Source: an uncultured Acidobacteriota bacterium (lineage in GTDB: Bacteria > Acidobacteriota > Vicinamibacteria > Vicinamibacterales > UBA2999). From it: a stretch of 64,000 nt of DNA. A program made the position numbers and the translations under genes. Positions 130 through 54,934 of this stretch are shown piece after piece. The notes beneath the pieces are model-generated. The model did no database searches, was not told the origin of the DNA, and worked only from the letters and a program-made list of their open reading frames with translations. The first letter of the stretch is position 1. The number at the start of each line of letters is the position of its first letter. The stretch is from contig CAVRUW010000008.1 of assembly GCA_963724485.1 (NCBI GenBank), positions 78,931-142,930 of the forward strand, written 5' to 3'.

Positions 130-3100
130 CTAACGAGTCAGTGTGACGGGCCGACCGAATCGCGAATAGAGCACCGGGACGACCACCATGTTGAGCGCGG
201 TCGAGCTCGCCAGGCCGAACATTATGACCATGGCCATCGGTGCCTGGATCTCGCTCCCAGGCTCACCGGCCGAGAGCGCGATCGGCACCAGCGCCAGACC
301 CGCGGCCAGCGCCGTCATCAGAATCGGAACGAGCCGCTCGCTGGCGCCACGGACGACCGCCGTGCGGAAGTCCGTTACGCCTTCGTGCTCCTGCAGATGC
401 CGGATGTGCGAGACGAGCATGATGCCGTTGCGCGTCGCGATACCGAAGAGCGTGATGAAGCCGACGATCGACGCGACGGACAGTACACCGCCGGCGAGAT
501 ACACCCCGATGACGCCACCGATCAGCGCGAGCGGCAGGTTCAGCATGATCAGCGCGCCATCACGTGACGAGCCGAAGGCGGCCGACAAGATGAAAAAGAT
601 CGCGACGATGACTCCGGCCGACAGCCACAGCAGCTGCTGCGACGCCTGCGCTTCGCTTTCGAACTGGCCGCCGTAATCGATGTGGTAGCCCTGCGGCAGC
701 CGGACGTTCTGGCCGACGCGCGCCTGGATGTCGTTGACGACGCTGCGCAGGTCGCGGCCGGACACGTTGCTCTGCACCACGATCCGCCGCTGGACGTTCT
801 CGCGCATCACGAAATTGGGCCCGCGATCCTCCTGGATGAGGGCGACGGAGGACAGCGGGATCTGCCGTCGATCCGGCGTCTGGATCTGCGTCGTTCCAAT
901 CGTGTCGAGCTCGCTCGGATGGTCGTTCGCGTAGCGCACGACGAGCGGAAACGCGATCTGGCCCTGCACGATTTGTCCGACCGCATGGCCAACCCGCGCC
1001 GTCTGCAGGGCTTCGGCCACCGTGCCCGACTCGAGCCCCTGCCGCGCCGCCGCCGCCGGATCGACGCGCACTTTCAGTGTCGGAATATCGGTCTGCTGCT
1101 CGGTGGCCAGATCAACGACGCCTTCGACCTGCGCCATCTCGCCGTGAACTTGCGCGGCCAGTTGCCGCAGCATTGGCAGATCGTCGCCGAAGATCTTCAC
1201 GGCGATGTTGGCCCGCGTGCCGGACAGCATATGGTCGATGCGGTGCGAGATCGGCTGTCCGATCGTGACGTTCGTGCCGGGCAGTAGTGAGGCCTTCTGC
1301 CGCAGCTCCTCGATCACCGCGTCGCGCGACCGGTCCTTCATCTCGAGCCGCACGTCGATCTCCGCGGACTCGACACCTTGCACGTGCTCGTCGAGCTCCG
1401 CGCGACCGGTCCGGCGCGCCGTGGACGTCACTTCGGGCACGCTCAGCATCAGCCGCTCCAGGCCGTTCCCGAGCGCATTGGAATCGGCGAGGCTCGTGCC
1501 GGGGATCGTCACAGCACTGACCGTGAGTGCACCTTCGTTGAATTCGGGGAGGAACGACCGACCGGCCGACAAGAGACCCACGATGGCGGCGACCAGCAGC
1601 GCGGCGGCGACCGTCAGCACCGTGCGCCAGTAATGGAGGAAGTGGCCTAGCCAGCGCTCGTAGGTGGCCTTCAGCCGTCGCGTCAGCCGCGGCTCTGAGC
1701 CCGAGGCGATCAGACGTGACTGCGGCAGCAGCCAGGAGCAGAGCACCGGCGTCACCGTCAGCGCCACGATCAGTGACGCGGTCAGTGCGACGACGTAGGC
1801 GAAGCCAAGCGGCCGCAGCAGACGGCCTTCCACGCTGGTCAGCATGAACAGGGGCAGGAACACGAGCGCGACGATGACCGTGGCGAACACCACCGAGTGG
1901 CGAATCTCGCTGCTCGCCTGGTAGACGACGTCGATGACGGGGAGGCCCTCTCCCTCGGGGCGCGCGGCGTTCTCGCGCAGCCGTCGCACCACGTTCTCCA
2001 CGTCGATGATCGCATCGTCTACGAGCTCGCCAATCGCGATGGCGAGACCCCCGAGGCTCATGCTGTTGATCGTCAGGCCGAAGCGGTCCATGCCGATCAC
2101 CGCCGCGACGAGCGAGAGCGGGAGCGCGAGAAGCGTGATGATCGCCGCCCGCATGTTCATCAGGAACACGACGACCACGAGAATCACGAGCGCCGCGCCT
2201 TCGAGAAGCGCGCGGAACAGATTGTCCAGCGATTGCTCGATGAAATCGGCCTGCCGGAACAGATCACGATGGATCTGCATGCCTTGGGGGAGTGCGCGCT
2301 GAATGTCTTCGAGCGTCGCGTCGATCCGCGCCGTCAGCTCCAGCGTGTTCACAGCCGGTTGTTTCTGGATGCCGACGATCACCGCGGGACGCGCGTTGTG
2401 TGACCCTTCGCCGCGTTTGATCGCTGCGCCTTCGCGGACCGTGGCGATGTCGCGAATCAAGATCGGCGCCGCCTCCGTGAACTTCACGCTGACTGCGGCG
2501 ATGGCCTCGACGTCGGCGAGCCGACCGACGCCGCGCACCAGATACTCCTGTCCCTGCGACACCTGGAAGCCCGCGGTCGCGTTCCGGTTGGCCGCAGTCA
2601 GTGCCTGCTCGACTTCGGACAGCGTTACTTGGTGCGCCGCCAGTCGCGACGGATCGATCACGACCTCGGTACTGTTTCTGCTCGCCGCCGGTCGCGATGA
2701 CCTGCGACACGCCGGGCACGGCAAGCAGCCGCCGCCGCACGACCGTCTCGGCTGTGGTGCGCAGTTCCAGCGGCGTGTGCCGATCCGATTCCAGGTCGAT
2801 GAACAGGATCTCGCCCATGATCGAGGACACAGGAGTAAGGAATGGCGGCTCGACATCCGGTGGAAGCGATCCGGACACGAGAGTGAGTTTCTCGGCCACG
2901 GTCTGGCGCGCGCGCTGAATGTCCTGGCCCCAGTCGAATTCAACCCACACGATCGCGACGCCGACGGCGGTCGCCGAGCGCACGCGCCGCACGCCGGCCG
3001 CGCCGTTGAGCGCCGATTCGATCGGAAAGGTGACGAGTGATTCGATCTCGAGCGGGTCCATGCCCGGCGCTTCCGTCAGGATCGTGACCGTTGGCGCGGT

Positions 3101-10201: not shown

Positions 10202-10317
10202 CGCTCCTCCTGCGCAGGGACACGCCACCATAGCAGGTCGCCCGGTGCCGGCGGAGCGATCGGCACGAGACGCGTATTATTGGAGTTGCGGCTCCTGTCG
10301 GCCGCGCACGGCGGAGC

Positions 10318-10734
10318 ATGACCATGACCCTGACCACGACCACTAAGACCGTCGGACTCGTTACGCTGCTCCTCACGGCAACGCTGGCGGGTCAGCCCAA
10401 GGATGAATACACCCCGAGCGATCCGGCGCGCGTCGGCGCGACCGGCAATCCGCAGCTCGTCGAGTTCTACCATCCACTTTGACTGGGCTGTCAGAAGATG
10501 AAGCCCATCGTGCATGGGCTCGAGCACAAATACGCGAAGCGGATCGACTTTCTCTTTCTCGACACCGGCGATGCTCGCACGGAGGCGGCGCGTCAGCGTC
10601 TCGGCTTCAAGAGCACGCCGCAGTTCGTCCTCCTGCATCCCGATGGCACGAAGTTTCGCGAGTGGACCGGCCTCGTGCCGGAAGCCGAGCTGAGCGCCGG
10701 GCTGGACGAGCTGCTGAAGTCACGACGGCGGTAA
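10318..10734 (+). CDS. Exported thioredoxin-fold protein with an in-frame TGA (10480-10482) at the first Cys position of CxxC. It is either a candidate selenoprotein (U-L-G-C) or a nonsense pseudogene.
   Basis: The ATG at 10318 and the ORF at 10498..10734 are in the same frame (180 nt apart). The read-through product is MTMTLTTTTKTVGLVTLLLTATLAGQP...NPQLVEFYHPL-[TGA]-LGCQKMKPIVHGLEHKYAKRIDFLFLD...STPQFVLLHPDG..., which follows the thioredoxin pattern F-x-A-x-W-C-G-P-C-x-x-M. Confidence 0.6.
10502..10520 (+). promoter_or_regulatory. Hairpin AGCCCAU-CGUGC-AUGGGCU starting 19 nt 3' of the in-frame UGA, a candidate bacterial SECIS element
   Basis: The perfect 7-bp stem (10502-10508 / 10514-10520) and 5-nt loop containing GU were read directly from the sequence. 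Confidence 0.35.
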
Positions 10735-10823
10735 TCTGCTGCGTGATCCGATTCGGAAGATCCCGAAGTCCTGCCGTCGCCATTCTTTGCATCATAAAGT
10801 TCTTTGTAGTAGGGTAGCGAAAC

Positions 10824-12360: not shown

Positions 12361-12428
12361 CACGCTACTCGGCAGAGCCGCGGCGACCCCTTGGAATCTA
12401 GAGGTCTTCTCCGCTGCCCGAAGCGGCC

Positions 12429-12457
12429 TTGACAATCCATAAGCATTTGCTTATACG
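12429..12457 (+). promoter_or_regulatory. Sigma70-like promoter (TTGACA-17 bp-TATACG) with an embedded perfect palindrome ATAAGCAttTGCTTAT (12439-12454), the likely ArsR-family operator
   Basis: Hexamers and the 7-2-7 palindrome were read directly. The -10 ends 6 nt before the ArsR ATG at 12464. Confidence 0.55.
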
Positions 12458-12463
12458 TAATGG

Positions 12464-12793
12464 ATGCCGAGCGCAGCCGTGCTCGAAGACAAGATCTTCC
12501 AGGCGCTGGCGGACCCCAGCCGCCGGGCGATCTTCAAGTCGATCATGCGTGGCGAAACCGCGGTGAAGGACCTCACAGCGCGCTTCGATATCTCGCAGCC
12601 GGCGGTCTCGCAGCACCTCGCCACGTTGAAAGACGCCGGCCTGGTGAACGGCCGGCGCGAGGGGCGTTTGGTCTACTACCGCGTGGAGCCGCGCGGGATG
12701 AAGCCGCTCATCGACTGGATCGCGCACTACCGCGCCTTCTGGACGGAGCACGTTGATCGCCTTGAACAACTGCTGGAGAAGATGGACAAATGA
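12464..12793 (+). CDS. ArsR/SmtB-family transcriptional regulator
   Basis: IFQALADPSRRAIFKSIMRGETAVKDLTARFDISQPAVSQHLATLKDAGLV is a winged-HTH signature. Confidence 0.9.
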   Translation: MPSAAVLEDKIFQALADPSRRAIFKSIMRGETAVKDLTARFDISQPAVSQHLATLKDAGLVNGRREGRLVYYRVEPRGMKPLIDWIAHYRAFWTEHVDRLEQLLEKMDK

Positions 12794-25401: not shown

Positions 25402-27893
25402 ATGCTCTTCCGCGATCTGGTTTTTGCCGCCCGTACCCTGCGCCGGAGTCCCGTCTTCACGGTCGCGGCCGCGCTGACAATCGCGCTGGGAATTGGCGCG
25501 AGCACGGCGATCTTCACCGTGACCAACAGCGTCCTGCTCCGTCCGCTGCCATACAAGGACCCCGATCGCCTGGTGGTCATGTACATGGACCTGCTCGTGC
25601 GCAACAGTCTCGGGATGCCGCTCTCGAACGAAAACTTCATCGACATCCGCGACGGGATCGAAGGGATCGTTCGAAGACATGGCGGCGTTTACCACCGGCC
25701 GGCAAGTGCTGCCCGGCCTCGATGGCACGCCCGAACAGGTGCGCCTCGCAGTGGTCACCGTCAACTTTTTCCGTCTGATGGGTGCATCGGTTGCGCTCGG
25801 TCGCGACTTCGAGGAGGCCGACGGCGTCCCGCAGCCGGCGCCGCAGAATCCTCAAGCAGGCGGCGCCCCAGCCGCGCCAGGGCCGCCGCCGCTGCCGGTC
25901 GTGGCCATCCTGAGTCATGAATACTGGCAGCGGCGGTACGGCGGCGATCCAGCCGTGCTCGGTCAGCGCATTCCCGCCGGCCCGCGCCCGGAGATCGTCG
26001 GCGTCCTCGCGCCAGGGTTCGAATTGCACTTCCCGCCCGCGACGAACGTCGAGCAGCGGCCGGACTTCTGGATCGCCAACCGTCTCAACTACAACAACGC
26101 CAACCGCAACACCTTCGGCCTGCGGCCGGTCGGCCGGTTGAAGCCCGGCGCCGCACTCGTGCGTGCGCAGGAGGAGGCCGACGCGGTCTCGGCCCATATT
26201 CGCGAGCAGTTTCCGGTGTCAAAAGGCTCCGGTTTCCACGCCCGGCTCGAGCCGATCCACAAGACGCTCGTCGACGAAGTCCGGCCGGCGATCCTGGCGC
26301 TGATGGGCGCGGTGATCTTCCTGTTGCTCATCGCGTGCGCGAACGTGGCGAACCTGCTCCTCGTGCGCTCGTCGCTCAGGCAGCCTGAGCTCGCCGTGCG
26401 CGCGGCGCTCGGCGCCGGTCGTGGACGCGTCATCCGGCAGATGCTGGCGGAGGCGGTTGTGCTGACCGCGCTCGGCGCCGCCGGAGGAATCGCACTCGCG
26501 TGGGTCGGCATTCGGCAGCTGTTGTCAATTGCTCCTGCGAATCTTCCGCGGCTCGAAACGATCCGCATCGATCCCATCGTGTTGCTGTTCACGCTGGCCA
26601 TCGCCCTGGCGGCCGCGTGTCTGTTCGGCATGGTGCCGGCCTTGAGCGCATTCAGGATGGATCTGGTGAACGCCCTCGGTGGCGCGGCCCGCACGGCGGG
26701 ATTGCGCGGCGGCGGCCGCCTGTTCAGAAACGCGGTTGTCGTCATCGAGGTCGCGCTCTGTTTCGTGCTGCTTGTCGGATCGGGTTTGATGATTCGCAGC
26801 TTTCTCGAGCTGCAGCGGATCGACCCCGGCTACGACCCGCGCGGCCTCCTGACGTTTCAACTGCTCGGCGGCGGTCCAGTGACACAGGAGCAAGGCGCGG
26901 CGAGGGGGCGCCAGCTCGAGGAGCGGCTGCGCGCGATTCCAGGCGTGCAGAGCGTCACGGCGTCGTTCCCGTTTCCGCTCGGCGGTGGCTTCAGCACCAT
27001 CAGGTGGGGACTGGAAGACGCGCTGACCGACACTTCGAAGTTTCAGGCCGTCGATTTTCAGGTCGTTCGCCCAGGTTACTTCGAAACGATGCGCACGGCG
27101 CTGGTGGCGGGGAGGACGTTCGCCGAGGCGGACAACAATGCGAAACGCAACGTCGTGGTCGTCGACACCATGCTGGCCGCGAAGGCCTTTCCGAATGAAT
27201 CCGCCGTCGGCAAGCGCATCCTGATTCGCATTCGTACGCCCGAGCCCGAGTGGGTCGAGATCATCGGGGTCGTCCAGCATCAGCGGGTGACGTCGCTCGC
27301 CGATCCGGGACGCGAGCAGGTCTATTTCGCCGACGGCTTCCTCGGGTTTGGCGCCGCCAACCGGTGGGCCGTTCGTACGGGTGGCGATCCCGCGCAGATC
27401 GCAGGGGCGGTTCGCGCCGCGGTCGCGGAGGTCAATCCGCTGTACCTGGTCATGGAGTTACGGCCGATGGACGCGCTCGTCCAGCAGGCACAGGCCAGCA
27501 CGCGATTCTCGCTGATGCTCATCGGCGTGTTCGCCGTGATGGCGGCGCTGCTGGTGGCGGTTGGCCTCTACGGCGTCCTGTCGACGGTCGTGCGCCAGCG
27601 CACCGCGGAGATCGGCGTACGCATGGCGGTTGGTGCGGCGCCCGGTCAGATCCTCCGCCTCGTGGTCGGCCACGGCCTGCGCTTGAGCGCGGGTGGCGTG
27701 CTCCTGGGCATTGTCGCCGCGGTCGCCGCTCACCAGGGCGATGACGACCATGCTGGTCGGTGTCAGGCCCACGGATCCGCTGACGTTCGCTGCGATGGGC
27801 GTTCTGTTCTTCGTCATTGCGATCGTGTCGTCCTGGCTGCCGGCGCGGCGCGCGGCGGGACTGGATCCCACGACGGCCCTGAGGGAAGGGTGA
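25402..27893 (+). pseudogene. ADOP-type duplicated FtsX/MacB-like permease with two frameshifts (~25669 and ~27727-27731)
   Basis: Three ORF pieces join into one protein. 25402.. ends ...DIRDGIEGI. 25679.. runs FEDMAAFTTG... to ...GVLLGIVAAVAA. 27693.. reads LTRAMTTMLVGVRPTDPLTFAAMGVLFFVIAIVSSWLPARRAAGLDPTTALREG*. The result is colinear with the intact paralogue 38524..41100. Confidence 0.85.
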
Positions 27894-27902
27894 CGCGCTT
27901 CA

Positions 27903-28307
27903 ATGCTGACCCACTTTCCACAAGCCGTTCCCGAGATTCCGGTGAGCAACGTTGACAAAGCCGCGGAGTACTACGTGAATGTGCTCGGATTCAGTTTTGA
28001 CTGGGGAAATGATGACGGCGGGATTGGCGGCATCTCGCAGGGGGAATGCCGAATGTTCCTCACGAACGCGCCGTTCCGCGCCGTCCACGGGCCGAAAGGC
28101 CCGGTGATCGTCTGGCTGAATCTCAACAGCAAACAGGAAGTCGACGAACTGTTCGAGCGCTGGAAAGATACCGGGGCGAAGATTATCGAGGCAGTGGAAG
28201 ACAAACCGTGGAACCTGCGTGAGTTCAGGGCCGCGGATCTGGACGGCAATCAGCTGCGTGTGTTCTACGACTTCAACTGGGAAATGAGCGAGGGGCGCAG
28301 TCGATAA
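27903..28307 (+). CDS. VOC-family (glyoxalase/bleomycin-resistance fold) protein
   Basis: IPVSNVDKAAEYYVNVLGFSFDW...FLTNAP...WNLREFRAADLDGNQLRVFYDF. Confidence 0.8.
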   Translation: MLTHFPQAVPEIPVSNVDKAAEYYVNVLGFSFDWGNDDGGIGGISQGECRMFLTNAPFRAVHGPKGPVIVWLNLNSKQEVDELFERWKDTGAKIIEAVEDKPWNLREFRAADLDGNQLRVFYDFNWEMSEGRSR

Positions 28308-38161: not shown

Positions 38162-38527
38162 ATGCCTGACAAGTTGAGAAGCGTCGACCGGCTGTTGCCG
38201 CTCAAACCGAAGGTTCTCCACATTTTGTTGGCGGTGGCAGATGGGCCTCGGCATGGCTACAGCATCATGCAGGAGGTAGCGAAGCGCACGGACGGCCAGG
38301 TTCGCCTGTGGCCCGCGGCATTGTACGGATTGCTTCGGGAACTCGAGAAGACCGATTTGATTGTGGAGTCGAATATCCGGCCGGCCGCCGAGGAAGATGA
38401 CGAGCGGCGCCGGTACTTTACGCTCACGCCGCACGGGAAGCGTGTGCTGGATGCCGAGGTTCGGCGCCTCGAGGCGATTGTCAGTCACGCTCGCTCGAGC
38501 CGTGCGTTGCGGAAGGCTCGCGCATGA
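38162..38527 (+). CDS. PadR-family transcriptional regulator
   Basis: LKPKVLHILLAVADGPRHGYSIMQEVAKRTDGQVRLWPAALYGLLRELEKTDLI...RRYFTLTPHGKRVL. Confidence 0.9.
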   Translation: MPDKLRSVDRLLPLKPKVLHILLAVADGPRHGYSIMQEVAKRTDGQVRLWPAALYGLLRELEKTDLIVESNIRPAAEEDDERRRYFTLTPHGKRVLDAEVRRLEAIVSHARSSRALRKARA

Positions 38528-41100
38528 CGACCGATCGGCGTGCCGTCCGCGAAGACGGCGACCGACTGCTCGACGACGCTCGCGCGCGTGGGCCAGTCAG
38601 CTTCGCGACGACTTGGTTTGCACTTCTCTGGGATCTCGTCTTCGTCGGAGCCAGGCACGATCTTGCGCAGGCACTGCGGACGCTCGTTCGATCGCCGGCA
38701 GTCACCGTCGGCACTTCACTGCTCCTCGGGCTTGGTGTCGCGGCGACGACCACGCTCTTCGCGTTTGTTGACGCAGTACTCCTTCGACCGCTGCCCTACG
38801 ATCAACCAGATCGGCTGGTCCTGATGTTTGAATCGAATGTCAGCCAGGATCGCCTGCGCGAGGGCCCGTCCCCGGGCAATGTCCTCGACTGGGTCGCCCG
38901 GAATGACGCGTTCGATGCGATCACCGCCGTGATGACGATCTCGGCCACCCTCCGGGGACGCGACGGTGGCACGCCGGTCAGCGGCGTACATGTCACGCGC
39001 GGTTTCTTCGACGTGTATCGTCGTCAACCACTGCTGGGACGCACGTTTCATGCGGACGAATACGAGGGCGCGGCGTCGATAATGTCGCGGCAGCCATCCA
39101 GCGGCGAACCGGTCGTCGTTCTAAGTCATCGCCTGTGGCAGACCCTGGGCGCCGATCCTCAGATGGTTGGCCGGACCGTCTCCGTGGAAGGCCGCGACTG
39201 GCGCGTGATTGGGGTGATGCCCGACGACTTCGCGGCGCCCGACGCGGCGGCGGCCTTTTGGGCGCCGTGGGACATGCGTGTGTCGTACCGCGGCGAGCGT
39301 TTTCCGAACGGGCCCCCTCGCGACGCCCGGTTCTTGCGCGTCGTTGGCCGGATGACAGCAGGGATGTCCATCGAAGGCGCAACGGCGCGAATGCAAACAC
39401 TGGCAAGCGGAATGGCGTCGGAGCATCCGGAGGTCAACGCCGGTTGGGGTGTTCGGCTCTCTCCGCTCACGGATGAAATCACACGCACGAGTCGTCTGGA
39501 GCTCCTCCTCGTCTTTGCCGCGATGTTCTGCCTGCTGTTGCTGGTGTGTGCCAACGTCGCCAGCCTGGCCATCGCGCGCGGGGTCGGCCGCGCGAGGGAG
39601 ATTGCGATTCGCCTGGCGCTCGGAGCCGGTGGGAGGCGCGTCACGCGACAGTTGATCGCCGAAAGTGTGCTGAGCGCCATCGTCACGATGGTCATCGCGA
39701 TCGTTCTCGCGACGTGGTGGTTGGACGCGGCCCTCTCGATAGCGCCCGCCGGCATTCCGCGCCTGCACGAAGTGGCCATGAACGCGCGAGTCGCGTCGTT
39801 TGCTGCCGTTCTCGCGCTCCTGGTCACGGCTGTCGGAAACGCCGTACCGACCTTTCGCGCGAGCCGGACACCGATTGCGGGAGCGCTCAAAGACGGGACC
39901 ACTGTTTCGACGAGCGCGTCTGGCCGGCTGCGCGCGGGACTGGTGGTGGGCGAGATTGCGGCTGCCGTGATGCTGCTCGTCGGAGCTGGGTTGTTGGCCA
40001 GGACATTTGCGGAGTTACGACGAGTTGATGTGGGCTTCAACACGAACAACCTTCTTGTCTTGCGCATCACCCCCGATGTCGCGCGATATCGCACTGGCGC
40101 GCAGACGACCGCTTACTACCGTCGGGTGCTCGATTCACTCCGCGAGGTTCCCGCGGTTGCGTCAGTGGCAGCGGTCACGTCCCTGCCGATGAGCACGATC
40201 GGTTCCGACTTTACCCGGCCGTACTGGCCTGAGCATGCCCGCCCTGAAGGCAACGCGGTGCCGGAAGCCAGCATTCGCATGGCGACACCTGGATACTTCG
40301 GGACGTTGGGCCGTCCCGTGATTGCTGGACGCGAGTTCTCGGACCGCGACGACGCTGACGCACCCCGTGTGGTCATCATCAATCAGACACTCGCGAGAAA
40401 CGCGTGGGGCAGTGAAAACCCGGTTGGACGAAACCTGGTTCTCGACTACCAGGGCGGGCCCTATCCCTATGAAGTGGTTGGCGTGGTGCGCGACGATCGT
40501 CACGATGGGCCGCGAAGTGAGCCGGTGCCTGAGATTTTCATTCCACACTCCCAGAACCCGTACCTCGTCCTGAACGTGATCGCTCGGACGACGATGGATC
40601 CCGTGGCCGTCGCCCAGACGGCTCGCGCCCACGCGCTTCGTGTCGACCCCGATCAACCCGTGCACTCGGTGACCACGATGGACCAACTGCTCGGCGATGT
40701 CGTGCAGCTCGATCGATTCGCCATGCTGCTCATCACGCTGTTCGCGGTTGGAGGGCTCATCACCGCGGCCGGTGGTGTGTACGCCCTGCTCGCCTACACC
40801 GTGGTGCAACGCCGTCGGGAGATTGCGATGCGGATGGCGCTGGGGGCGTCCCCGCGGCGTGTCGCACGGTCGATCGTGATGGAATCGCTGGTTCTCGCCG
40901 TCGCTGGCGGCACGATCGGCCTCATCGGTGCGGCGGCAAGCACCCGTTTTGCGCGCACGCTGCTCTTTGGTGTGGCGCCGCAGGATCCCATAACGCTCGT
41001 GACGGCCGTTGCCGTGCTCCTTGTAGTGGTCGTGGCTGCCAGCTGGTTGCCGGCGCGCCGTGCCTCACTGATCGACCCAGGGCGCGCGATGCGGATTTGA
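38524..41100 (+). CDS. ADOP-type duplicated FtsX/MacB-like permease (intact)
   Basis: ATGA overlap with PadR. ...TTTLFAFVDAVLLRPLPYDQPDRLVLMF..., two MacB_PCD+FtsX halves, and it ends ...AASWLPARRASLIDPGRAMRI. Confidence 0.9.
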   Translation: MTTDRRAVREDGDRLLDDARARGPVSFATTWFALLWDLVFVGARHDLAQALRTLVRSPAVTVGTSLLLGLGVAATTTLFAFVDAVLLRPLPYDQPDRLVLMFESNVSQDRLREGPSPGNVLDWVARNDAFDAITAVMTISATLRGRDGGTPVSGVHVTRGFFDVYRRQPLLGRTFHADEYEGAASIMSRQPSSGEPVVVLSHRLWQTLGADPQMVGRTVSVEGRDWRVIGVMPDDFAAPDAAAAFWAPWDMRVSYRGERFPNGPPRDARFLRVVGRMTAGMSIEGATARMQTLASGMASEHPEVNAGWGVRLSPLTDEITRTSRLELLLVFAAMFCLLLLVCANVASLAIARGVGRAREIAIRLALGAGGRRVTRQLIAESVLSAIVTMVIAIVLATWWLDAALSIAPAGIPRLHEVAMNARVASFAAVLALLVTAVGNAVPTFRASRTPIAGALKDGTTVSTSASGRLRAGLVVGEIAAAVMLLVGAGLLARTFAELRRVDVGFNTNNLLVLRITPDVARYRTGAQTTAYYRRVLDSLREVPAVASVAAVTSLPMSTIGSDFTRPYWPEHARPEGNAVPEASIRMATPGYFGTLGRPVIAGREFSDRDDADAPRVVIINQTLARNAWGSENPVGRNLVLDYQGGPYPYEVVGVVRDDRHDGPRSEPVPEIFIPHSQNPYLVLNVIARTTMDPVAVAQTARAHALRVDPDQPVHSVTTMDQLLGDVVQLDRFAMLLITLFAVGGLITAAGGVYALLAYTVVQRRREIAMRMALGASPRRVARSIVMESLVLAVAGGTIGLIGAAASTRFARTLLFGVAPQDPITLVTAVAVLLVVVVAASWLPARRASLIDPGRAMRI

Positions 41101-41270
41101 GGCGGCCGAGGGGTCTAAGGTGCCTGGGTGCCTAACTGCCTGGCATGCGCAAACGTGACGGACCGCACCATCCGATCCACTTCACGGCTGCGAGCCGAAG
41201 GTTGATCGTGGCGTACTCGTTCCCAACGAGTCGTATCGCGCATCAGGATGTTCATGCTTCAGGAGGTGAC

Positions 41271-43710
41271 TTGAACGATTTCCGTCTCGCGATTCGGGCC
41301 CTTCGCGTTGCTCCCCTCGTGTCGGCGGCAGCCATCGTCTCCCTTGCTATTGGCATGGGTGCAAACACGACCGTGTTCTCGGTCATCAACGCGATTCTCC
41401 TGAAGCCGGCTCCTTATCCTGAACCCGATCGCCTCGTTCTGTTGGGGTACACCTTTTCCGGAACATCCGTTGCTCTCGTGTCAGAAACGAAACTGAACGT
41501 CTGGAGAGATCAGACGACCGCCTGGCAAGACATTGCAGCGTTGCGCGTGCGCGACGTGAACGTGAGTGACGGCGGCCGTGCCGAACAAGTACTGGCGCTC
41601 CAAACCAAGGCCGACTTCTTCGCCGTGTTTGATGCCCGGACGGCTCTCGGACGCACCTTCACGCCTGCGGAGGATCAACCTGGCGGCGACCGTGTTGTGG
41701 TCCTGAGCGACGGCTTCTGGAAGCGGCGATTCGGCTCGGATCCTCGCATCGTTGGGACCCAGTTGCGCGTCGACGGTTCGATCGTCACGGTCGTCGGAGT
41801 TATGGACGCGAGCGTCGATACCTCCATTTTCAACGTCACTCCGGATCTGTGGATCCCGCTGCAGCTCGATTCGAACAGCACGAGCCATGGACCGTCGCTT
41901 ATCGCCGCCGGCCGACTCAGGCCAGGCGTGTCGGCGGCGCTCGCGCAGGCCCGTGCGCGCCCGACCGCCGAAGCATTTCGTCGACAGTATCCGCAAGTGA
42001 TCGGACCTGACGACACGTTTACTATTGCACCCTTTCACGACGCGCTCGTTCAGAGCACCCGGTCGTCGTTGCTAGTCCTGGCGGGTGCCGTCGCCTTTGT
42101 CCTGTTGATCGCATGTGCCAACGTCGCGAACTTGGTGTTGATCCGCGGGTCGGTCCGGCAGCGAGAATTCACGATTCGCGCAGCGGTGGGCGCCAGCCGA
42201 TGGCAGATCGTTCGTCAACTCCTCACCGAAAGTCTGGTGCTCACGTCGCTCGGAGGCGGTCTTGGCTTGATCCTCGCCGCGATCGGCACACGAGTTCTCT
42301 TGGCGATGAATCCTACCAGCCTGCCTCGCATTGGAGCGGAGGCCAGCGGCGTTACCCTGGACTGGCGCGTGTTGTCGTTTGCGCTTGCGGTCTCGGTGGC
42401 GACCGCGCTCCTCTGTGGTCTGTGGCCCGCCTTGCACGTGTCACACGACGATTTGAGCGTGCCGCTCCGCGGGAGTGCCGGACGCGCCGGATCGACTGCG
42501 CGAGAGCGACACGTGCGGTCATTGCTGGTGGTCGGTGAGTTGGCCCTCGCGTTGGTGCTGTTGGTGGGTGCCACGCTGCTGATCCGCACGTTCGCGGCGC
42601 TGCATCAGGTTGATCGCGGCCTCGATCTTCATCAAGTGCTGACGCTGCGCGTGGCGCTCACGGATCCCCGTTTCGCGACCACGAAGACGGTCGCGGAGAT
42701 TGTGCGGACGGGGGTGCAGCGTGTCACGGCGATTCCAGGTGTCATTCATGCGGCGGCCACACGTACGTTGCCGCTGGAGTCCGACTGGCGCACGAGCATT
42801 CGCGTCGTCGGCCGGCCGGCGGATTCGTCGCCGCTCATGACCAGCTACCGCATCATCTCGCCAGGATACTTCGACGTCCTCAACATTCCCGTCCTGCGGG
42901 GCCGTGATCTAACAGATCGCGACGGAACGGGAGCGCCGCCAGTCGCCATCATCAATCAAGAGATGGCACGCCGATATTGGCCCGGCGCCGACCCGCTCAA
43001 CGACCGGCTCATTGCCTTCCCTGGTCACGTTCCGGACGAAGAGCCGGCTCGACAGATCGTGGGTCTCGTCGCCGATGTCCGTGACGGGATGCCTCTCGAC
43101 CAGGAACAACAGCCGATCGTGTACGTCCCGTTGGCGCAGCTGCTTGATCGGGAGAGCGCCACCCAGGCAGGCTCGTTGGCTTGGGTGGTTCGCACGCGCG
43201 CTGAACCCGGCGCGCTCGCGCGCATCATCGAGCGTGAGATCTCAGCGGCGAGCGGCGGCGCGCCAATCTCGAGTGTGAGATCGATGGACGAGATTGCCGG
43301 TACGTGCGATCGCACCAACCACCTTCAGCATGACCGTGCTCATCGTCTTCGGCGCCTGTGCCCTGCTCCTTGCCGCGGTCGGGATGTACGGCGTGATGGC
43401 GTATGCGGTTCAGCAGCGCACGTACGAGATTGGTGTCCGCCTCGCGTTGGGAGCTGGATTCCATCAGGTCCGCAACATGGTCCTGCTGGATGGCCTGAAG
43501 CTCGCATCCTGCGGTGTGGTGCTTGGCTGCGTAACTGCTGCCGCGCTGACCGGAACGCTGAGAGCCTATCTGTTTGACGTCCGTGCTCATGATGTTCTGA
43601 CGTTCATCCTGGCCCCAGCGTTGCTCGGCATGGTTGCCTTTATGGCCGTGTGGATTCCTGCTCGCCGAGCGTCGCGAGTCGATCCCGCGCAGGTCTTGAG
43701 AGGGCTATAA
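41271..43710 (+). pseudogene. ADOP-type duplicated permease, frame broken at 43299-43302
   Basis: AGGAGG-tgac-TTG start at 41271. LNDFRLAIRALRVAPLVSAAAIVSLAIGMGANTTVFSVINAILLKPAPYPEPDRLV... runs to ...SVRSMDEIAG. Then ORF 43294.. gives RAIAPTTFSMTVLIVFG...WIPARRASRVDPAQVLRGL*. Confidence 0.85.
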
Positions 43711-47486: not shown

Positions 47487-48035
47487 ATGCAGGACGTCGA
47501 GAAAACCCTGGGCAGCATCACCATGGCGCCGTATATCGTCAAGGCGATGGCGTTGATCGGGGTGAAGCGCCGCGCCGGCAGCAACATGTTTCGCCACCAG
47601 ATCAGCACGATGGCCATCCTTCTCGACTACAAGATCATCGATCCCGTGCTGCTGAAGGCTGCGGTGATCCACGATCTCTTCGAGGACGCCGCGGGCTTGC
47701 CTGGCGTCTCTCAGCGGGAGATTACGGAAATCGACTCAGACGGCCCAGCGGTCTACGACCTCGTCATGGAGATGACCATTCGTGTCGTCGACGGAGTCAA
47801 GGAACCCAAATCGGAGTACTTGTTGCGCATCATGCGGTACGGCAGCGACCGAGCCAAGATCTTGAAGCTTGCGGATCGCATCAGCAATCTCACCGCGCTG
47901 GGCTTCGTGCACGATGTCGAGTTCGTGAAGAGATACGTTCACGAGACCAGGACGTTCATCCTGCCGCACGCCGAGCGGATCAACCCGGATATGTTCAAGG
48001 AGTTGTCGGATCTCGTTGCCAGTCGTGCGCGGTAG
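47487..48035 (+). CDS. Stand-alone RelA/SpoT-type HD (ppGpp-hydrolase-like) domain protein
   Basis: RHQISTMAILLD...KAAVIHDLFEDA...VYDLVMEMT...SDRAKILKLADRISNLTAL follows the HD_4 pattern (H...HD...ED...KLADRLhN). Confidence 0.7.
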   Translation: MQDVEKTLGSITMAPYIVKAMALIGVKRRAGSNMFRHQISTMAILLDYKIIDPVLLKAAVIHDLFEDAAGLPGVSQREITEIDSDGPAVYDLVMEMTIRVVDGVKEPKSEYLLRIMRYGSDRAKILKLADRISNLTALGFVHDVEFVKRYVHETRTFILPHAERINPDMFKELSDLVASRAR

Positions 48036-48772: not shown

Positions 48773-49768
48773 TTACCATGCGCCGAGCCGATTGATGACA
48801 GCGATGGCGGCGACGCTGACCACGAGACCAGTCATGGTGGCGAGCGCCATCGCTCGAGTCACGTCGCTTGCCGTTTCAAGAATCGGATCGCGTGGATCGC
48901 CAATCCAGAGATCCGTCACCTGCCGTCCCCCGAGCCAGATTGGGCCAACGATTCGGCGCTGCACCGCGCCAGCGATCGCCGCCTCGCTCCACCCTGAATT
49001 CGGGCCAAGCAACAGCGCATGCTGACGAAGGCCCACTAGCCACGCCTTTCGGCCGGAACAGGTCGGGAGCAGCGTGGCGAGGCCGGCAATCACCAGCCAT
49101 GTCAGTCTCGCTGGAACGAAATTCATCACGTCGTCGAGCCTGGCACCGCACCATCCGAATCGCAGGTAGCGCGGCGTTTTGTAACCCACCATCGAGTCCA
49201 TCGTGCTCACGACCTTGAAGAGCACGAGACCTGGAATCCCCGCGAGCACATACCAGAACACCGGGCTCACGAATCCATCGGTGAGGTTCTCGCCGAGACT
49301 CTCCACCGCGGCACGCCGGCAGGCGCCGGCATCCATGCGATCGGTATCACGACCGACGAGCGCGCTCACGGCTACACGCGCGCGTGGCAGGTCGCCCGCA
49401 CGGACGGCGCGCTCGATCTTCCACACGTGGTGAAGCAAGTCACCGAGCGCAAGGAGGCTGTAAAGCACAAATACGTGAGCCACCCAGCCAAGGGTGGGCG
49501 AGACCGCGGCCGCAACGGCGATCGATCCGGTAATCGCGGCGACTGACGCGGCCGACAAACCGACGAACAACAGCACACCGCCGGCGTATCCATCCAAGCC
49601 GGCCGCGCGCAGCTTGTCCTCCATCCACGTCAGCACGCGTCCGACAAGCCGAACGGGATGCCATGCGTAGCTCGGGTCGCCGATCGCGAGATCGACGAGG
49701 GCCGCAACGCCGAGCAGGTACGGGTCAGGGCCGATCGCCGCAGCGAAGCCGCTTAGAGATGTCGCCAC
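48773..49768 (-). CDS. cbiB: Adenosylcobinamide-phosphate synthase CbiB/CobD
   Basis: LVDLAIGDPSYAWHPVRLVG...ALVGRDTDRMD...ESLGENLTDGFVSPVFWY...KVVSTMDSMVGYK...GW.ARLDDV.NFVPARL. The GTG start at 49768 is inferred. Confidence 0.85.
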   Translation of the reverse strand: MATSLSGFAAAIGPDPYLLGVAALVDLAIGDPSYAWHPVRLVGRVLTWMEDKLRAAGLDGYAGGVLLFVGLSAASVAAITGSIAVAAAVSPTLGWVAHVFVLYSLLALGDLLHHVWKIERAVRAGDLPRARVAVSALVGRDTDRMDAGACRRAAVESLGENLTDGFVSPVFWYVLAGIPGLVLFKVVSTMDSMVGYKTPRYLRFGWCGARLDDVMNFVPARLTWLVIAGLATLLPTCSGRKAWLVGLRQHALLLGPNSGWSEAAIAGAVQRRIVGPIWLGGRQVTDLWIGDPRDPILETASDVTRAMALATMTGLVVSVAAIAVINRLGAW

Positions 49769-50874
49769 TTCTCGGTCCAGCCGAGCGCCAATGCGCGCAG
49801 GACCAGGTCCTTCACGTCGCCACTCGCATGCGGCCGCAACCGCCCACGGAACTCGCTCCACCGCTGGATCTGCGCCGCCAGGTTCGCCGCGAGCAGCGCC
49901 GCGTGCTGCGCCATCGCATCCGGAGCCGCCGATTGGGGTACCGTTCCGAATCGCACGCGATCGCAAACCGCGGCCAGCGCGTGCGCCGCCGTCCCGACCA
50001 GTGGCTCGAAGAGGGCGGCCTTGGTGTTCTTCTGCAACAACTCGAGATCGGCATCGCCGAGAAACGGCGCGATGTCCTCGAAGAACGTCGCCTCTTTGAC
50101 GCCGTAGCGGCCCAGGGCGTGGAAGACGCCGCGCGTGTAACTGGCTTCGAGGCCGTTCTGCCATCGCAGCGCTTCCAGCGTCGCCTGTCGCGTCACGAGC
50201 CCCACGAGCTCACCAAGCTTCATGTGCGGGCTCGCGGAGGTCAGCGGCGGGCCATCGATCAACGGCACGGCAATGCAGTACTGATCGGTCCCCGTGCCGG
50301 TCGCGAGATCGACATGACGTTTGCTGGGCACGGCCAGCCGCTGCAAAGCGGCGCTCTTGCCTTCGGTCATCGTTACCACCACGCGGGCTAACGCGGCCGG
50401 CGTCAGGGGGCGGTTGATGAACAACATGGTGTTGATGGTGCCGGCGTAGGCAGGCACCTTCTCGATGCCGGCTTCGGTCTCGCGCCAGGATGCGGGTTCG
50501 CCCGCCGCGGTCGCGTTCCCTTCGACGCCGGCGGTCACGGCGGCCATGACCGCCAGGCCTTCGTCCGTTTCCTGCGCGATTGCCACGTAGTTCATGTTGG
50601 CGGCCGTGCCCATCACCGCTGTCGTCGCCGCGGGCAGCATCGCCTCGGCGCAGGCGCGGTCGTGATACGCATCGAGACCGGCTTCGACCATGAGCCGGTG
50701 TCGCTCGAGATGCGCGGTGCCCTCGCAGCTCTGATGATTGAGCAGATGCTGAAGGTAATCGACCTGCCCGCCATGCCGGACTGACGTGGTCAGCACGCGA
50801 TGCGGACCGCGCAAGTCGGCAGTCAGAAAGCGTCCGGCTCGGCGAAGACCGACCAGGTTGTTGTCGACGAGCAT
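49753..50874 (-). CDS. cbiZ: Adenosylcobinamide amidohydrolase CbiZ-like, with a ~130-aa C-terminal extension
   Basis: ...MAAVTAGVEGNATAAGEP...AGTINTMLFINRPLTPAALARVVVTMTEGKSAALQRL...LATGTGTDQYCIAV. The start is uncertain (ATG 50874 or TTG 50913). Confidence 0.75.
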   Translation of the reverse strand: MLVDNNLVGLRRAGRFLTADLRGPHRVLTTSVRHGGQVDYLQHLLNHQSCEGTAHLERHRLMVEAGLDAYHDRACAEAMLPAATTAVMGTAANMNYVAIAQETDEGLAVMAAVTAGVEGNATAAGEPASWRETEAGIEKVPAYAGTINTMLFINRPLTPAALARVVVTMTEGKSAALQRLAVPSKRHVDLATGTGTDQYCIAVPLIDGPPLTSASPHMKLGELVGLVTRQATLEALRWQNGLEASYTRGVFHALGRYGVKEATFFEDIAPFLGDADLELLQKNTKAALFEPLVGTAAHALAAVCDRVRFGTVPQSAAPDAMAQHAALLAANLAAQIQRWSEFRGRLRPHASGDVKDLVLRALALGWTEKWRHL

Positions 50875-50905
50875 TTCCCACGCGAGTCGCGCATTCTCAT
50901 TGAGG

Positions 50906-52321
50906 TCAGACAAGATCGAGCTCTCCAAAGCGTCGTTGATGTTGGTCGAACCACTTGCCCAGCCTGCGATAGTGATCCGCCTTGGCTCCCGCGTCCGGTG
51001 GCATGACGCCAAACACCGCCGCGCACACCTCAGGATTTTCGAAAGCTCCGTGCAAATAGGTACCAATCACGCGATTTGCCCAGATGCCATCCTCGCTGCC
51101 GTCCCTCAGCCTGGCAAACGGTGTGGTGCGCGCGGATGGGTCGAGCGTCGTCACGCCCAAGTGAATCTCGTAAGCGCCAAAGTCCTGGCCGGTGACGAGT
51201 TTCGCAGCAACGGCCTTCGTCATCTTTTTGGACGTGAGTACAGTCGCGGCGGGAATCAGCTGAAGGCCGTCGACGTGCGGGGCTGAGCCCTCGACGCCGG
51301 TCGGATCCTCGATGCAATCCCCGAGCATTTGATAGCCGCCGCAGATCCCGATGATCGTCGCACCGGCTCTATGGCGCGCCGTGACCCAATCCGCCAGTCC
51401 CTGGGCGCGAAGCCATTCAACGTCGGCGATCGTGTTCTTGCTGCCGGGCAGGATGATGAAATCGAATCGGTCCGATGTGGGCGCGCTGACCCAGTCGGCC
51501 CACGTCAGCAGCCGGAAATCTGTCGCATTCGACAGATGGGGCAGTCGAACGATTGCGATTCGCGCCCCCGCTGGCGGCGTCGTTCGTCGGCGTGTCTCCA
51601 ACGCCAAACTGTCTTCGGCATCGAGATGGATATCGTCGGCGTACGGAAACACGCCAAAGCATCGCGACGCGGTCAGCGCTTCCAGCGCCGGGACACCATC
51701 GTCGAACAGCGAAACGTCCCCGCGGAACTTGTTGATCATGAAGCCGCGAAACAGCGCGCGTTCCTCAGCCCTGAGCAGGTGTGTTGTGCCCACGATCGAC
51801 GCGAAGACACCGCCCCGCTCGATGTCGGCGACCAACAGCCAGGGCGCGTGCAGGGAGGTGGCCAGCCACAAGTTCACCACGTCATGCTGGCGCAGGTTCA
51901 GCTCGGAAACACTGCCGGCGCCCTCGATGACCACGACGTCGAACCGGCTTGCCAGATCGTGATAGGCCTCCAGCACCTTTGCCCGCAATACGTCCGTGCA
52001 CCGGTAGTATTCGCGAGCGCTGAGCGTGTTCCACACCTGTCCGTGGACCACGACCTGGCTGACACCATGACCGCTCGGCTTCAGCAGGATTGGATTCATC
52101 GCGGGCTCGGGTTCGAGCCCACAGGCTTCGGCCTGCGCCACCTGCGCGCGGCCGATCTCGCCTCCGGCGGCGCACGGATACGAGTTGTTCGACATGTTCT
52201 GCGCCTTGAAAGGAGCGACCGAGACCCCCCGATTGCGGAGCCAGGCGCAGATGGCCGTGACCATCCAGCTCTTGCCGGCGTTGGAACATGTACCGCCAAT
52301 GAAGATCGGGCGGGCACTCAT
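50906..52321 (-). CDS. cobQ: Cobyric acid synthase CobQ/CbiP
   Basis: MSARPIFIGGTCSNAGKSWMVTAICAWL...APFKAQNMSNNS...NPILLKP...VVIEGAGS...GICGGYQMLG...YLHG. ATGA overlap with the upstream gene. Confidence 0.9.
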   Translation of the reverse strand: MSARPIFIGGTCSNAGKSWMVTAICAWLRNRGVSVAPFKAQNMSNNSYPCAAGGEIGRAQVAQAEACGLEPEPAMNPILLKPSGHGVSQVVVHGQVWNTLSAREYYRCTDVLRAKVLEAYHDLASRFDVVVIEGAGSVSELNLRQHDVVNLWLATSLHAPWLLVADIERGGVFASIVGTTHLLRAEERALFRGFMINKFRGDVSLFDDGVPALEALTASRCFGVFPYADDIHLDAEDSLALETRRRTTPPAGARIAIVRLPHLSNATDFRLLTWADWVSAPTSDRFDFIILPGSKNTIADVEWLRAQGLADWVTARHRAGATIIGICGGYQMLGDCIEDPTGVEGSAPHVDGLQLIPAATVLTSKKMTKAVAAKLVTGQDFGAYEIHLGVTTLDPSARTTPFARLRDGSEDGIWANRVIGTYLHGAFENPEVCAAVFGVMPPDAGAKADHYRRLGKWFDQHQRRFGELDLV

Positions 52322-53178
52322 TCGTGCCCTCGTGACCCAACGACGCCATCGATCTGCCGCCGCATCCAAGCGAGGTTGCGTGCGAGCCGGTCTTCCTGAG
52401 ACACCAGCGGGCAACTTGCGCACAGCTCGCCCGCGGGTAACAAATAGAATCGGCAGCAACTGGCGCGACGCTGATAGACGTGGGTCGCGTCGCGGTAACT
52501 CACCGTATGCACCTGCGGTCTCATCAGCGCGACCAGGTCGTCGCCCGCAAAAAATTGCTGCAGCTCGGGCAACACGCCGCTCTGATCGGACCCCGCTGCC
52601 GACAGGGTGATGAGATGTGCGGCCCACGACGAGGTCAACATCCCCCAGGTCCCGCGCGGGGCGAAGCCGGACCAGACGTGGAGCGCTTCCACGACAGGAG
52701 CCGCCTGCGCGATCAACTCACGCCGCAGGCTTTGCAACAACGCGCCTCGATCGGGCACGCACCGGACGCCTGGATATTCCGCCCCGTGGTCGCCGTCGAT
52801 CAGAACGCCGCGTGGCTCATGAATTGCGGTGCGCTCGAAGAATGTCGATGCCTTGAACTTCAAGGACACGTTCTCCAACGAGATATCAGGCACGCAGCCG
52901 TATTTCACGTACGGTGCGATGGCCATTGCAGAAGCCCAGCCAAATCTCAACGCATACAGGGCGGCGATTGTCCGGCGATCGGTCGTCTCGAGCCGCGCGC
53001 CGATGCGCAACAGCAACGCGTTGAGTGGTCCCGACGTTGCGTTGGACAGCTCGCTGCCGACGATCCATCCATCGCCCCATTCCGGCCGGCCGAGCTCCAC
53101 GTTCCAGCTCGCGTTGAGGCGCTTCAAGCCTTCGAAGGCACGGGCGATCGGTGACGTGTGTTGGCCGGCCAGGCTCAT
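52318..53178 (-). CDS. FhuF-family (siderophore-iron-reductase-like) 2Fe-2S protein
   Basis: The C-terminus ...RRASCCRFYLLPAGELCASCPL gives C-C-x10-C-x2-C, the FhuF cluster motif. Both ends have ATGA overlaps (permease stop, cobQ start). Confidence 0.75.
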   Translation of the reverse strand: MSLAGQHTSPIARAFEGLKRLNASWNVELGRPEWGDGWIVGSELSNATSGPLNALLLRIGARLETTDRRTIAALYALRFGWASAMAIAPYVKYGCVPDISLENVSLKFKASTFFERTAIHEPRGVLIDGDHGAEYPGVRCVPDRGALLQSLRRELIAQAAPVVEALHVWSGFAPRGTWGMLTSSWAAHLITLSAAGSDQSGVLPELQQFFAGDDLVALMRPQVHTVSYRDATHVYQRRASCCRFYLLPAGELCASCPLVSQEDRLARNLAWMRRQIDGVVGSRGHE

Positions 53179-54167: not shown

Positions 54168-54934
54168 CTGTAGCCGACCCAAGCACCAGCCGCCGGGCTG
54201 TGTTCGACCCGCAGTCGATCCGAAAAGACACGCAACCACGACGGGTCGTCGAGGGCGGCGCCAGCCCGCACGTCGAGCACCACACGGCGATCCGCGAGCA
54301 CGACCAGCCGGCTGCAAAACGTGAGCGCGAGGTTGATGTCATGCGTGACGGCAAGGCACGCCGTACCGCGACTGGCTTCGTCACGGAGCAGTGTGAAGCA
54401 GTGCAGCTGTTGATCGATGTCAAGGAACGTCGTCGGCTCGTCCAGCAGCAACAGCTGCGGTCGCTGCGCGAGGCACGCGGCAAGGTACACGCGCTGGCGC
54501 TCTCCGCCGCTCAAGGTGCCGAGCGTCCGGTCACGATACTGCAAGCAATCGCACCGCTGCATCGCCGCACTCGCGATCTCGCGATCCTCTGCTAACTCGA
54601 ACCATTGTGATGCGTGCGCATAGCGGCCCATGAGGACCAGCGCTTCCGCGCGCATCGCCAGATCGGCACGGAGGCTTTGCGGGAGATGCGCAACGACACG
54701 TGCGCGTTCGTCGGCGCTCCAGGAGCGTAGCGGTCGATTGTGAATGAGGACCTCGCCGGCGCTGGGCCGTCTCAGGCCGCCGATGATATCCAGCAAGGTG
54801 CTCTTGCCGGCGCCGTTCCGGCCCATGATGGCGACGAATTCACCCGCCGCGACATCGAGCCCGACGCCGCGCAGGATTTCGGTTGAACCCGCTTGCCAGC
54901 TCACGCTACGGACCCGGAGGAGACCCTCGCTCAT
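54164..54934 (-). CDS. ABC importer ATP-binding protein (BtuD/FhuC/FecE type)
   Basis: GRNGAGKSTLL Walker A, LSGGERQRV signature, LLLLDEPT Walker B. ATGA overlaps at both ends. Confidence 0.9.
   Translation of the reverse strand: MSEGLLRVRSVSWQAGSTEILRGVGLDVAAGEFVAIMGRNGAGKSTLLDIIGGLRRPSAGEVLIHNRPLRSWSADERARVVAHLPQSLRADLAMRAEALVLMGRYAHASQWFELAEDREIASAAMQRCDCLQYRDRTLGTLSGGERQRVYLAACLAQRPQLLLLDEPTTFLDIDQQLHCFTLLRDEASRGTACLAVTHDINLALTFCSRLVVLADRRVVLDVRAGAALDDPSWLRVFSDRLRVEHSPAAGAWVGYR

Follow-up and report, generated by a model that had tools for sequence, protein, structure and literature searches.

Within a 64,000-nucleotide stretch of DNA from an uncultured Acidobacteriota bacterium (contig CAVRUW010000008.1, positions 78,931 to 142,930; the whole of this stretch is called the window below), there is a small gene at 10318-10734 whose thioredoxin-like coding sequence is interrupted by a single in-frame TGA, and which very probably specifies a genuine exported thioredoxin-fold selenoprotein with a selenocysteine insertion sequence (SECIS) hairpin. 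A preliminary description of the sequence had put this gene forward as a candidate exported selenoprotein, and the proposal has since gained support from the conservation of the TGA, covariation in the hairpin and the export signals of the family. As homologs in three phyla of soil and sediment share both the TGA and the hairpin, the internal stop almost certainly encodes selenocysteine (Sec).

The reading frame and the conservation of its TGA

From the ATG at 10318, the frame runs for 54 codons to the TGA at 10480-10482 and then meets no other stop until the TAA at 10732-10734. The TGA is the sole interruption between that ATG and the open reading frame (ORF) at 10498, and the common frame of the two, remarked on in the preliminary description, was confirmed on the sequence. 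Read-through from ATG 10318 gives a product of 138 aa, MTMTLTTTTKTVGLVTLLLTATLAGQPKDEYTPSDPARVGATGNPQLVEFYHPL-[UGA]-LGCQKMKPIVHGLEHKYAKRIDFLFLD...STPQFVLLHPDGTKFREW..., which reads ...PQLVEFYHPL-[TGA]-LGCQKMKPIVHGLE... around the codon and reproduces the peptide quoted earlier (NPQLVEFYHPL-[TGA]-...). A second ATG, at 10324 (136 codons), is probably the likelier start, because a Shine-Dalgarno-like GGAG (10313-10316) lies 7 nt before it, compared with 1 nt before ATG 10318, and because gene callers picked the equivalent position in two sister contigs (L035 and L036; homologous loci are given here by their L numbers). The coding signal runs across the TGA, with a GC content at third codon positions (GC3) of 0.76 before and 0.82 after it. 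When the window was scanned for TGA codons flanked on each side by 50 codons of coding-type composition, TGA 10480 was the only clear case; two weaker candidates for a second selenoprotein gene in the window both looked spurious. A scan for promoters and terminators near the gene gave nothing informative.

The product is a thioredoxin-fold protein. With Cys put in place of the internal stop, the read-through protein matched Pfam Thioredoxin (PF00085) at 37.2 bits against a cut-off of 23.5, and reached 25.7 bits with PF13098, just below the cut-off of 27, with the UxxC motif present. The TrxA equivalog models were missed (TIGR01068, 37 against 96.8 bits; NF047697, 35.1 against 140 bits), and the models devoted to thioredoxin-like selenoproteins in NCBIfam release 20.0, namely the HUIPC-motif model NF047660, SaoT (NF040730) and VPGUxxT (NF041383), gave no match at E <= 1. 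Alignment of a family profile with solved thioredoxins placed the TGA column on the first Cys of WCGPC, which is where the preliminary description had placed it within CxxC, and the invariant T-P on the cis-proline loop. The active-site motif is then U-L-G-C (U55-x-x-C58), in the context F-Y-H-P-L-U-L-G-C. The structure predicted for the closest full-length relative (P0002, 54% identity) from a 41-sequence alignment had a predicted local distance difference test score (pLDDT) of 88, with a core of at least 96, and is a beta-alpha-beta-alpha-beta-beta-alpha thioredoxin fold in which the position equivalent to U55 lies at the N-terminus of the first long helix (55-70). Its best matches in the PDB were classical thioredoxins, at a target-normalized template modeling (TM) score of ~0.8.

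A signal peptide, a lipobox or a membrane anchor is present at the N-terminus throughout the family, and because of this shared hydrophobic segment the protein is predicted to work outside the cytoplasm, in agreement with the signal peptide and export proposed in the preliminary description. The N-terminus encoded in the window has a Lys-containing n-region and a hydrophobic core (maximum Kyte-Doolittle 12-residue mean of 2.23), and the Acidobacteria-type clade to which it belongs has a cleavable-looking signal peptide, ...LLLTATLA, with a putative cleavage site before GQ. The Chloroflexota members have a lipobox, L-x-A-C, followed by a Pro/Ala-rich linker, and those of the Gemmatimonadetes a membrane anchor or signal peptide.

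An exact look-up of the 78-aa ORF downstream of the TGA located two independent assemblies of other samples, L035 (99.4% nucleotide identity over 16.7 kb) and L036 (96.7%), and both have the same TGA, in the codons TAC CAT CCA CTT TGA CTG GGC TGT. The TGA is constant in alignments with 14 (L035) and 39 (L036) gaps relative to the window, and since these two assemblies differ from the window by so many indels, the frameshift-like gene defects elsewhere in the window are probably assembly noise. A 1.2-kb short-read Logan contig shows a matching split into ORFs of 52 and 78 aa. A protein search with the read-through sequence returned seven proteins, five of which (50-92% identity) are recorded as fragments of 78-82 aa, and in all five distinct close metagenome relatives an in-frame upstream ORF ends in TGA at the same codon, FYHP[LG]-TGA-x-[GA]-C.

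A scan of one genome per bacterial species with the upstream peptide pattern TG[RNK]P[QR]LVEF, which is blind to the identity of the codon, extended the family to 27 loci from Acidobacteria, Gemmatimonadetes, Anaerolineae/Chloroflexota and two Myxococcales, with TGA at the codon in 23 of them and TGC or TGT in four; the best match among these species-representative genomes was 63% identical. Taking all other loci together, the codon is TGA in 31/39 (27 of them distinct), down to ~38% protein identity, and TGC or TGT in eight, representing seven distinct Cys forms (L020, L023, L032, L034, L037/L038, L039 and L040). Among the findings that the preliminary description had named as refuting the idea were a TGC or TGT in the reads and close relatives with a plain Cys codon and no conserved structure. 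What emerged was the same TGA in the independent assemblies and, among the relatives, the opposite pattern, with TGA in 5/5 close ones and 23/27 scanned loci, and with a conserved hairpin. Two copies from metagenome-assembled genomes (MAGs), L026 and L033, have 1-nt deletions shortly 3' of the TGA that shift the frame, and these are either MAG consensus errors or signs of decaying copies.

The homologs that encode Cys have WCxxC at the TGA column, and most full-length database homologs are CxxC forms. Two nearly identical Anaerolineae proteins, one with TGA (L014, at 6818) and one with TGC (L037/L038; P0008), look like the outcome of a very recent Sec/Cys switch and suggest a ready interchange of the two residues. 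In a large protein collection a profile search found 477 proteins at E <= 1e-10. Among the best 120 of these, 54 are fragments of 73-79 aa that start just after the TGA with M-[KRA]-P-[IV]-V-H-G-L-E, and 63 full-length proteins could be parsed, mostly CxxC forms. Judged by their sequences, the fragments are Sec forms cut at the UGA, and their records name them "hypothetical protein", "thioredoxin family protein" or "thioredoxin-like negative regulator of GroEL".

The SECIS-like hairpin

Beginning 19 nt after the TGA, at 10502-10520, is a 7-bp hairpin, AGCCCAU-CGUGC-AUGGGCU, that also codes for K-P-I-V-H-G-L; the preliminary description had reported it as perfect and at this distance, and both points were confirmed. 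Folded alone, it has a free energy of -10.0 kcal/mol (z = -2.66). The window sequence by itself is unconvincing for the hairpin, and it is the comparative data that make the case. In a gap-free alignment that spans the TGA to +63 in 26 distinct TGA-type sequences, RNAalifold predicted a single consensus helix, columns 24-29 with 35-40, which is the 7-bp hairpin minus its outermost, variable A-U pair. In this 6-bp stem 92% of cells are paired, compared with 8-45% after shifting the 3' partner by 1-3 columns. Pair 28:36 is AU in 19 sequences, GC in five and GU in two, the 5' change from Ile to Val being matched by a synonymous 3' change of His CAT to CAC. Pair 27:37 is CG in 25 sequences and UA in one (L027), where the pair is kept at the price of a Gly-to-Arg change. 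In L018 and L028, one extra pair closes the loop and leaves GUU. The third codon positions within the stem (columns 27, 33 and 39) are fixed or nearly so, whereas the third position of the Leu codon just outside it (column 42) takes all four bases.

The published model of bacterial SECIS (bSECIS) elements has a loop of 3-9 nt, a stem of 4-16 bp, a UGA-to-loop distance of 16-37 nt, and G in the first two loop positions, frequently with G or U after it (PMC13188914). The family hairpin fits this model, with a loop of 5 nt (3 nt in L018 and L028), a stem of 6-8 bp, an invariant GU in the loop (G31 and U32) and a distance of 26 nt.

The protein sequences carry the imprint of the same structure. 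At the two residues constrained by the stem, all 54 of the Sec-type fragments have I/V/M at the one, and G (50) or R (4) at the other, whereas among the 63 full-length, mostly Cys, proteins I/V/M is found in 30 (Thr being commonest) and G/R in 31 (Fisher p = 7e-12 and 2e-11). Because these residues are fixed in the Sec fragments and relaxed in the Cys forms, the RNA structure constrains the peptide P-[IVM]-V-H-[GR]-L in the presence of the UGA and not otherwise, a case of RNA constraint acting on a protein sequence. The hairpin is lost in most homologs that encode Cys; the DNA of the diverged ones still forms 2-5 of its six pairs, with folding energies of -3 to -6.6 kcal/mol compared with about -10 for Sec forms.

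Proposed decoding of the UGA and relation to known selenoproteins

The reading of the gene as a selenoprotein has to be weighed against a number of observations that count against it. When 10480-10545 is folded as a single sequence, another pairing wins over the hairpin (z only -1.6). (The rival pairing in the minimum free energy structure, 10485-10490 with 10502-10507, is not conserved in the family alignment.) Three of the seven stem pairs never vary, the stem overlaps a conserved peptide, and only two pairs truly covary. The Cys form of L037/L038 keeps all six pairs, and the hairpin is therefore not strictly diagnostic. A search of 10300-10760 against Rfam at E <= 10 gave nothing relevant, with two weak, unrelated matches. 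One homolog, L007 (protein P0002, from forest soil), has AAA (Lys) instead of TGA at 853-855 and keeps a perfect hairpin; possible explanations are an artefact, a recent inactivation and a variant with a single Cys. No tRNA-Sec was found by ARAGORN in the window and 33 loci, and no SelA, SelB or SelD was recognized among the ORFs of the window (by inspection and by Pfam/NCBIfam) or in the 40 loci studied, negatives that cover the 64-kb window and the homologous loci and do not extend to the remainder of the genome. Neither the CcdA link nor the metal-stress link described below is seen in the neighborhood of the window gene, and both come from a minority of loci. As for the lineages concerned, Sec-decoding species are known in the Acidobacteria and Chloroflexi (PMC1794560), and no statement of Sec decoding in Gemmatimonadetes was found in the literature.

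The alternative that survives best, although it is improbable, is that the UGA is recoded to something other than Sec, be it Cys, via a tRNA-Sec-like tRNA(Cys) and a SelB paralog, the product of an allo-tRNA opal suppressor, or near-cognate Trp or Cys. There are precedents, in that a selC* tRNA(Cys) working with SelB* is known from Deltaproteobacteria and other anaerobes, and unusual allo-tRNAs, some of them predicted suppressors, are frequent in Acidobacteria (PMC5389517). Sequence analysis cannot separate Sec from Cys at a SECIS-directed UGA, and no Sec machinery was seen in the window and the loci scanned. However, selC*/SelB* has been reported in Firmicutes, Thermodesulfobacteria, Nitrospirae and Proteobacteria, not in the three phyla found here (PMC5389517), and a UGA on the redox Cys of a thioredoxin fold, together with a model-fitting SECIS and coexisting Cys orthologs, is the standard signature of a selenoprotein (PMC13188914). 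Moreover, repeated switching between the two forms, as in L014 and L037, would be selectively meaningless if UGA already meant Cys.

Less probable still is that there are two separate small genes here, one for a secreted peptide of 52-54 aa and one for a 78-aa "thioredoxin family protein" starting at ATG 10498. Gene callers and the NCBI and JGI records do list the 73-79 aa fragments as proteins, but the 78-aa piece is without beta-1 and the entire active site, which spans the TGA; the upstream piece shows in-frame conservation, its PQLVEF...U..C lining up colinearly with the full-length Cys homologs; and the supposed start Met is a conserved residue of C-x-x-M-x-P that is Leu in L018, L027 and L029. 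The remaining alternative, a nonsense mutation or sequencing error in what would be a dead thioredoxin-like pseudogene or a gene with a miscalled TGC or TGT, could appeal to defects among the genes of the window, where the profiles of ADOP permeases and CusA are incompletely covered in frame, to the many indels between related assemblies and to the frameshifts just after the TGA in L026 and L033, but it has almost no probability left given the identical TGA in L035 and L036, its presence in 27 distinct homologous loci of three phyla and the coding signal that continues across it. It is not credible that dozens of lineages each acquired a nonsense mutation at the same codon.

On the selenoprotein reading, the comparative data suggest that the hairpin at 10502-10520 would recruit SelB with Sec-tRNA(Sec) during translation, and that the UGA would then be decoded as Sec rather than as a stop. 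The signal peptide would carry the finished protein across the cytoplasmic membrane, with the Chloroflexota relatives presumably anchored via their lipobox. Outside the cytoplasm, the selenolate of U55 may attack substrate disulfides or bind soft metals, Cys58 would resolve U55 as a selenenylsulfide, and re-reduction would probably be by a membrane electron carrier of the CcdA/DsbD type. In this account, SelB dependence, the insertion of Sec and no other residue, the site of signal-peptide cleavage, the partnership with CcdA and any part in metal stress are inferred.

Exported selenoproteins as such are already known, among them periplasmic formate dehydrogenases and [NiFeSe] hydrogenases. Thioredoxin-fold selenoproteins with UxxC, including exported Dsb-like ones, have been established since the early 2000s (PMC13188914, PMC1794560), and their families comprise thioredoxin, glutaredoxin, "thiol:disulfide interchange protein", DsbA-like, DsbG-like and "thiol-disulfide isomerase-like" proteins (PMC13188914). 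A 2026 inventory counts 119 prokaryotic selenoprotein families and subfamilies, and most of the characterized ones have a thioredoxin-like fold (PMC13188914).

With the Sec-containing thioredoxins, of which that of Treponema denticola (PF00085, UxxC) is experimentally verified (PMC13188914, Table 1), the window protein would share the fold, Sec for the N-terminal Cys of CxxC and a bSECIS hairpin in the coding sequence just downstream. It differs from them in its context, F-Y-H-P-L-U-L-G-C compared with W-U/C-G-P-C, and its clade is found in Acidobacteria, Gemmatimonadetes and Chloroflexota; unlike classical cytoplasmic thioredoxin, it has an export signal and scores far below the TrxA cut-off. 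It is also like the "thiol:disulfide interchange" or Dsb-like selenoproteins in being an extracytoplasmic member of the thioredoxin superfamily with a predicted UxxC and a weak PF13098 match, yet that match is below the cut-off and the protein is without a DsbA or DsbG domain. The public names of relatives include "thiol-disulfide isomerase/thioredoxin" and "thiol:disulfide interchange protein". The clade may belong to the "thiol:disulfide interchange" family (representative WP_011366075.1) or be a sister of it, and it may already be counted within that broad family or the broad "Trx" one. ResA, CcmG/DsbE and TlpA are likewise small exported or anchored proteins of thioredoxin fold, and the family resembles them further in having a DsbD_TM/CcdA gene adjacent (L012, L014 and L037) or fused (L034). 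Unlike these, the window protein has no Redoxin or AhpC-TSA hit, and its nucleophile would be Sec. As for the hairpin, it is like the SECIS of Escherichia coli fdhF and fdnG in lying in the coding sequence 3' of the UGA, with a small G-U apical loop and fixed spacing, and unlike them in that it has neither sequence resemblance nor a bulged U, its stem starts 20 nt after the UGA, and its binding of SelB is putative.

In literature on the Gemmatimonadetes, Anaerolineae and Acidobacteriota, no specific description of the clade was found, which is an absence of evidence only. The understanding of Sec decoding and of thioredoxin chemistry is unchanged by the finding, which overturns nothing; its interest lies in the RNA constraint on the peptide and in a systematic gap in annotation that affects three phyla abundant in soils and sediments. 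Gene callers split the gene into ORFs of 52 and 78 aa, both among its relatives and in dozens of Acidobacteria, Gemmatimonadetes and Chloroflexota clusters in the databases, and a clade of probable exported selenoproteins would thus be invisible in current annotation, with the selenium use of its carriers under-counted.

Gene neighborhoods, possible roles and other features

The window gene sits between an Iron_permease-family gene and a beta-lactamase-family gene, with a CzcCBA-type efflux operon ~4.5 kb upstream and an ArsR/SmtB regulator ~1.7 kb downstream; there is no CcdA gene in the window and there are no cytochrome c maturation genes nearby. Across the family loci there is no universal operon partner. 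Several neighbors recur without being constant, and the genes that flank the window gene are not among them. In L014, L012 and L037 the next gene downstream encodes a DsbD_TM/CcdA membrane electron carrier, and such a domain is fused to the distant Cys form in L034, arrangements that are typical of CcdA/DsbD-dependent reductive pathways. MerR-family regulators with a metal-type DNA-binding domain occur at L008, L033, L012, L014, L019/L031 and L040, and UPF0060/YnfA is near the gene in seven distinct loci. A MerC-like membrane protein is encoded at L007 (26.5 bits with Pfam, just below the cut-off) and, by tblastn only, at L008, L009 and L033; a P-type ATPase gene adjoins the gene in L015, and thioredoxin-like DUF255/DsbH proteins are encoded beside it in L018 and L028. 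The loci with recurrent neighbors across phyla also include L003, L013 and L024, and in L007 the gene overlaps the upstream MerC-like ORF.

These recurrent neighbors hint at a regulon for metal or redox stress. The chances are about even that the protein acts as a selenol/thiol reductant outside the cytoplasm and is maintained in the reduced state by a CcdA-type carrier, with possible induction by metal or oxidative stress. A more direct part in handling metals, as the periplasmic, selenium-based component of a module for stress from soft metals (Hg/Cu/Cd-type), in which a UxxC thioredoxin-fold protein would take a MerP-like role, suggests itself because of the MerR regulators (at least six loci) and the MerC-like, UPF0060/YnfA, P-type ATPase and CcdA neighbors, and because of the CzcCBA operon and ArsR/SmtB regulator in the window, but it is rather unlikely, and less likely than the CcdA-fed reductant. 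If it were true, the use of Sec in the largely aerobic soil phyla Gemmatimonadota and Acidobacteriota would be systematically under-annotated.

Positions of the features of the gene, of two Cys-form homologs and of other elements (window coordinates unless a locus is named) are collected in Table 1.

Table 1. Coordinates of the proposed selenoprotein gene and of other features.
Feature	Positions	Strand	Basis or remark
Thioredoxin-like selenoprotein coding sequence (predicted)	10318..10734	+	Single internal TGA; PF00085 match; same architecture in at least 28 homologous loci
N-terminal export signal, ~residues 1-24 (MTMTLTTTTKTVGLVTLLLTATLA, then GQ)	10318..10389	+	Hydrophobicity; putative T-L-A cleavage
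In-frame UGA, proposed Sec codon U55, at the N-terminal nucleophilic Cys site of CxxC	10480..10482	+	Profile alignment; homologs
TGT, Cys58, resolving Cys of U-L-G-C	10489..10491	+	Invariant column C58/C28 in family alignments
SECIS-like hairpin inside the coding sequence	10502..10520	+	Stem 10502/3-10508 with 10514-10519/20; loop CGUGC 10509-10513
CCG, Pro101, cis-proline of K-S-T-P-Q	10618..10620	+	Invariant column; aligns to thioredoxin S-I-P-T cis-Pro loop
Cys-form gene, L037	1501-1929		
Cys-form gene, L038	1076-1504		
CusA/CzcA gene	130-3075	-	Incomplete in-frame profile coverage
Short ORF, 80-97 aa	12045-12338	+	Coding-like composition
ADOP-family (TIGR03434) duplicated permease paralogs	25523-27955, 38401-41100, 41136-43577	+	Two of the three with incomplete in-frame profile coverage
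Genes following the cobalamin riboswitch	49753-58822	-	TonB-dependent receptor and genes past it
Cobalamin riboswitch RF00174	58896-59102	-	102 bits

The order of genes around the selenoprotein gene is rearranged between the window and L001, the gene of which has 92% nucleotide identity. In L001 it lies between homologs of the HD-domain gene of the window (154-692, corresponding to 47487-48025 of the window) and of the ArsR regulator (1177-1364, corresponding to 12428-12614), and the beta-lactamase gene is absent. In the window, that beta-lactamase-family gene is followed in the same frame by the short ORF of Table 1; L035 and L036 each have it as a called gene of 80 aa with no Pfam match, and by eye it resembles a putative C-terminal remnant of a metallo-hydrolase.

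The presence of three ADOP paralogs points to a genome of the Acidobacteriota type, and the window is probably acidobacterial. The indel defects in two of the three ADOP paralogs and in the CusA/CzcA gene look like long-read assembly errors and not real pseudogenes. Finally, the cobalamin riboswitch lies upstream of a gene for a TonB-dependent receptor, past which are genes for a periplasmic binding protein, a FecCD permease, an FhuF_C-domain protein and CbiZ, which together look like a riboswitch-controlled operon for the uptake and salvage of B12/cobinamide.

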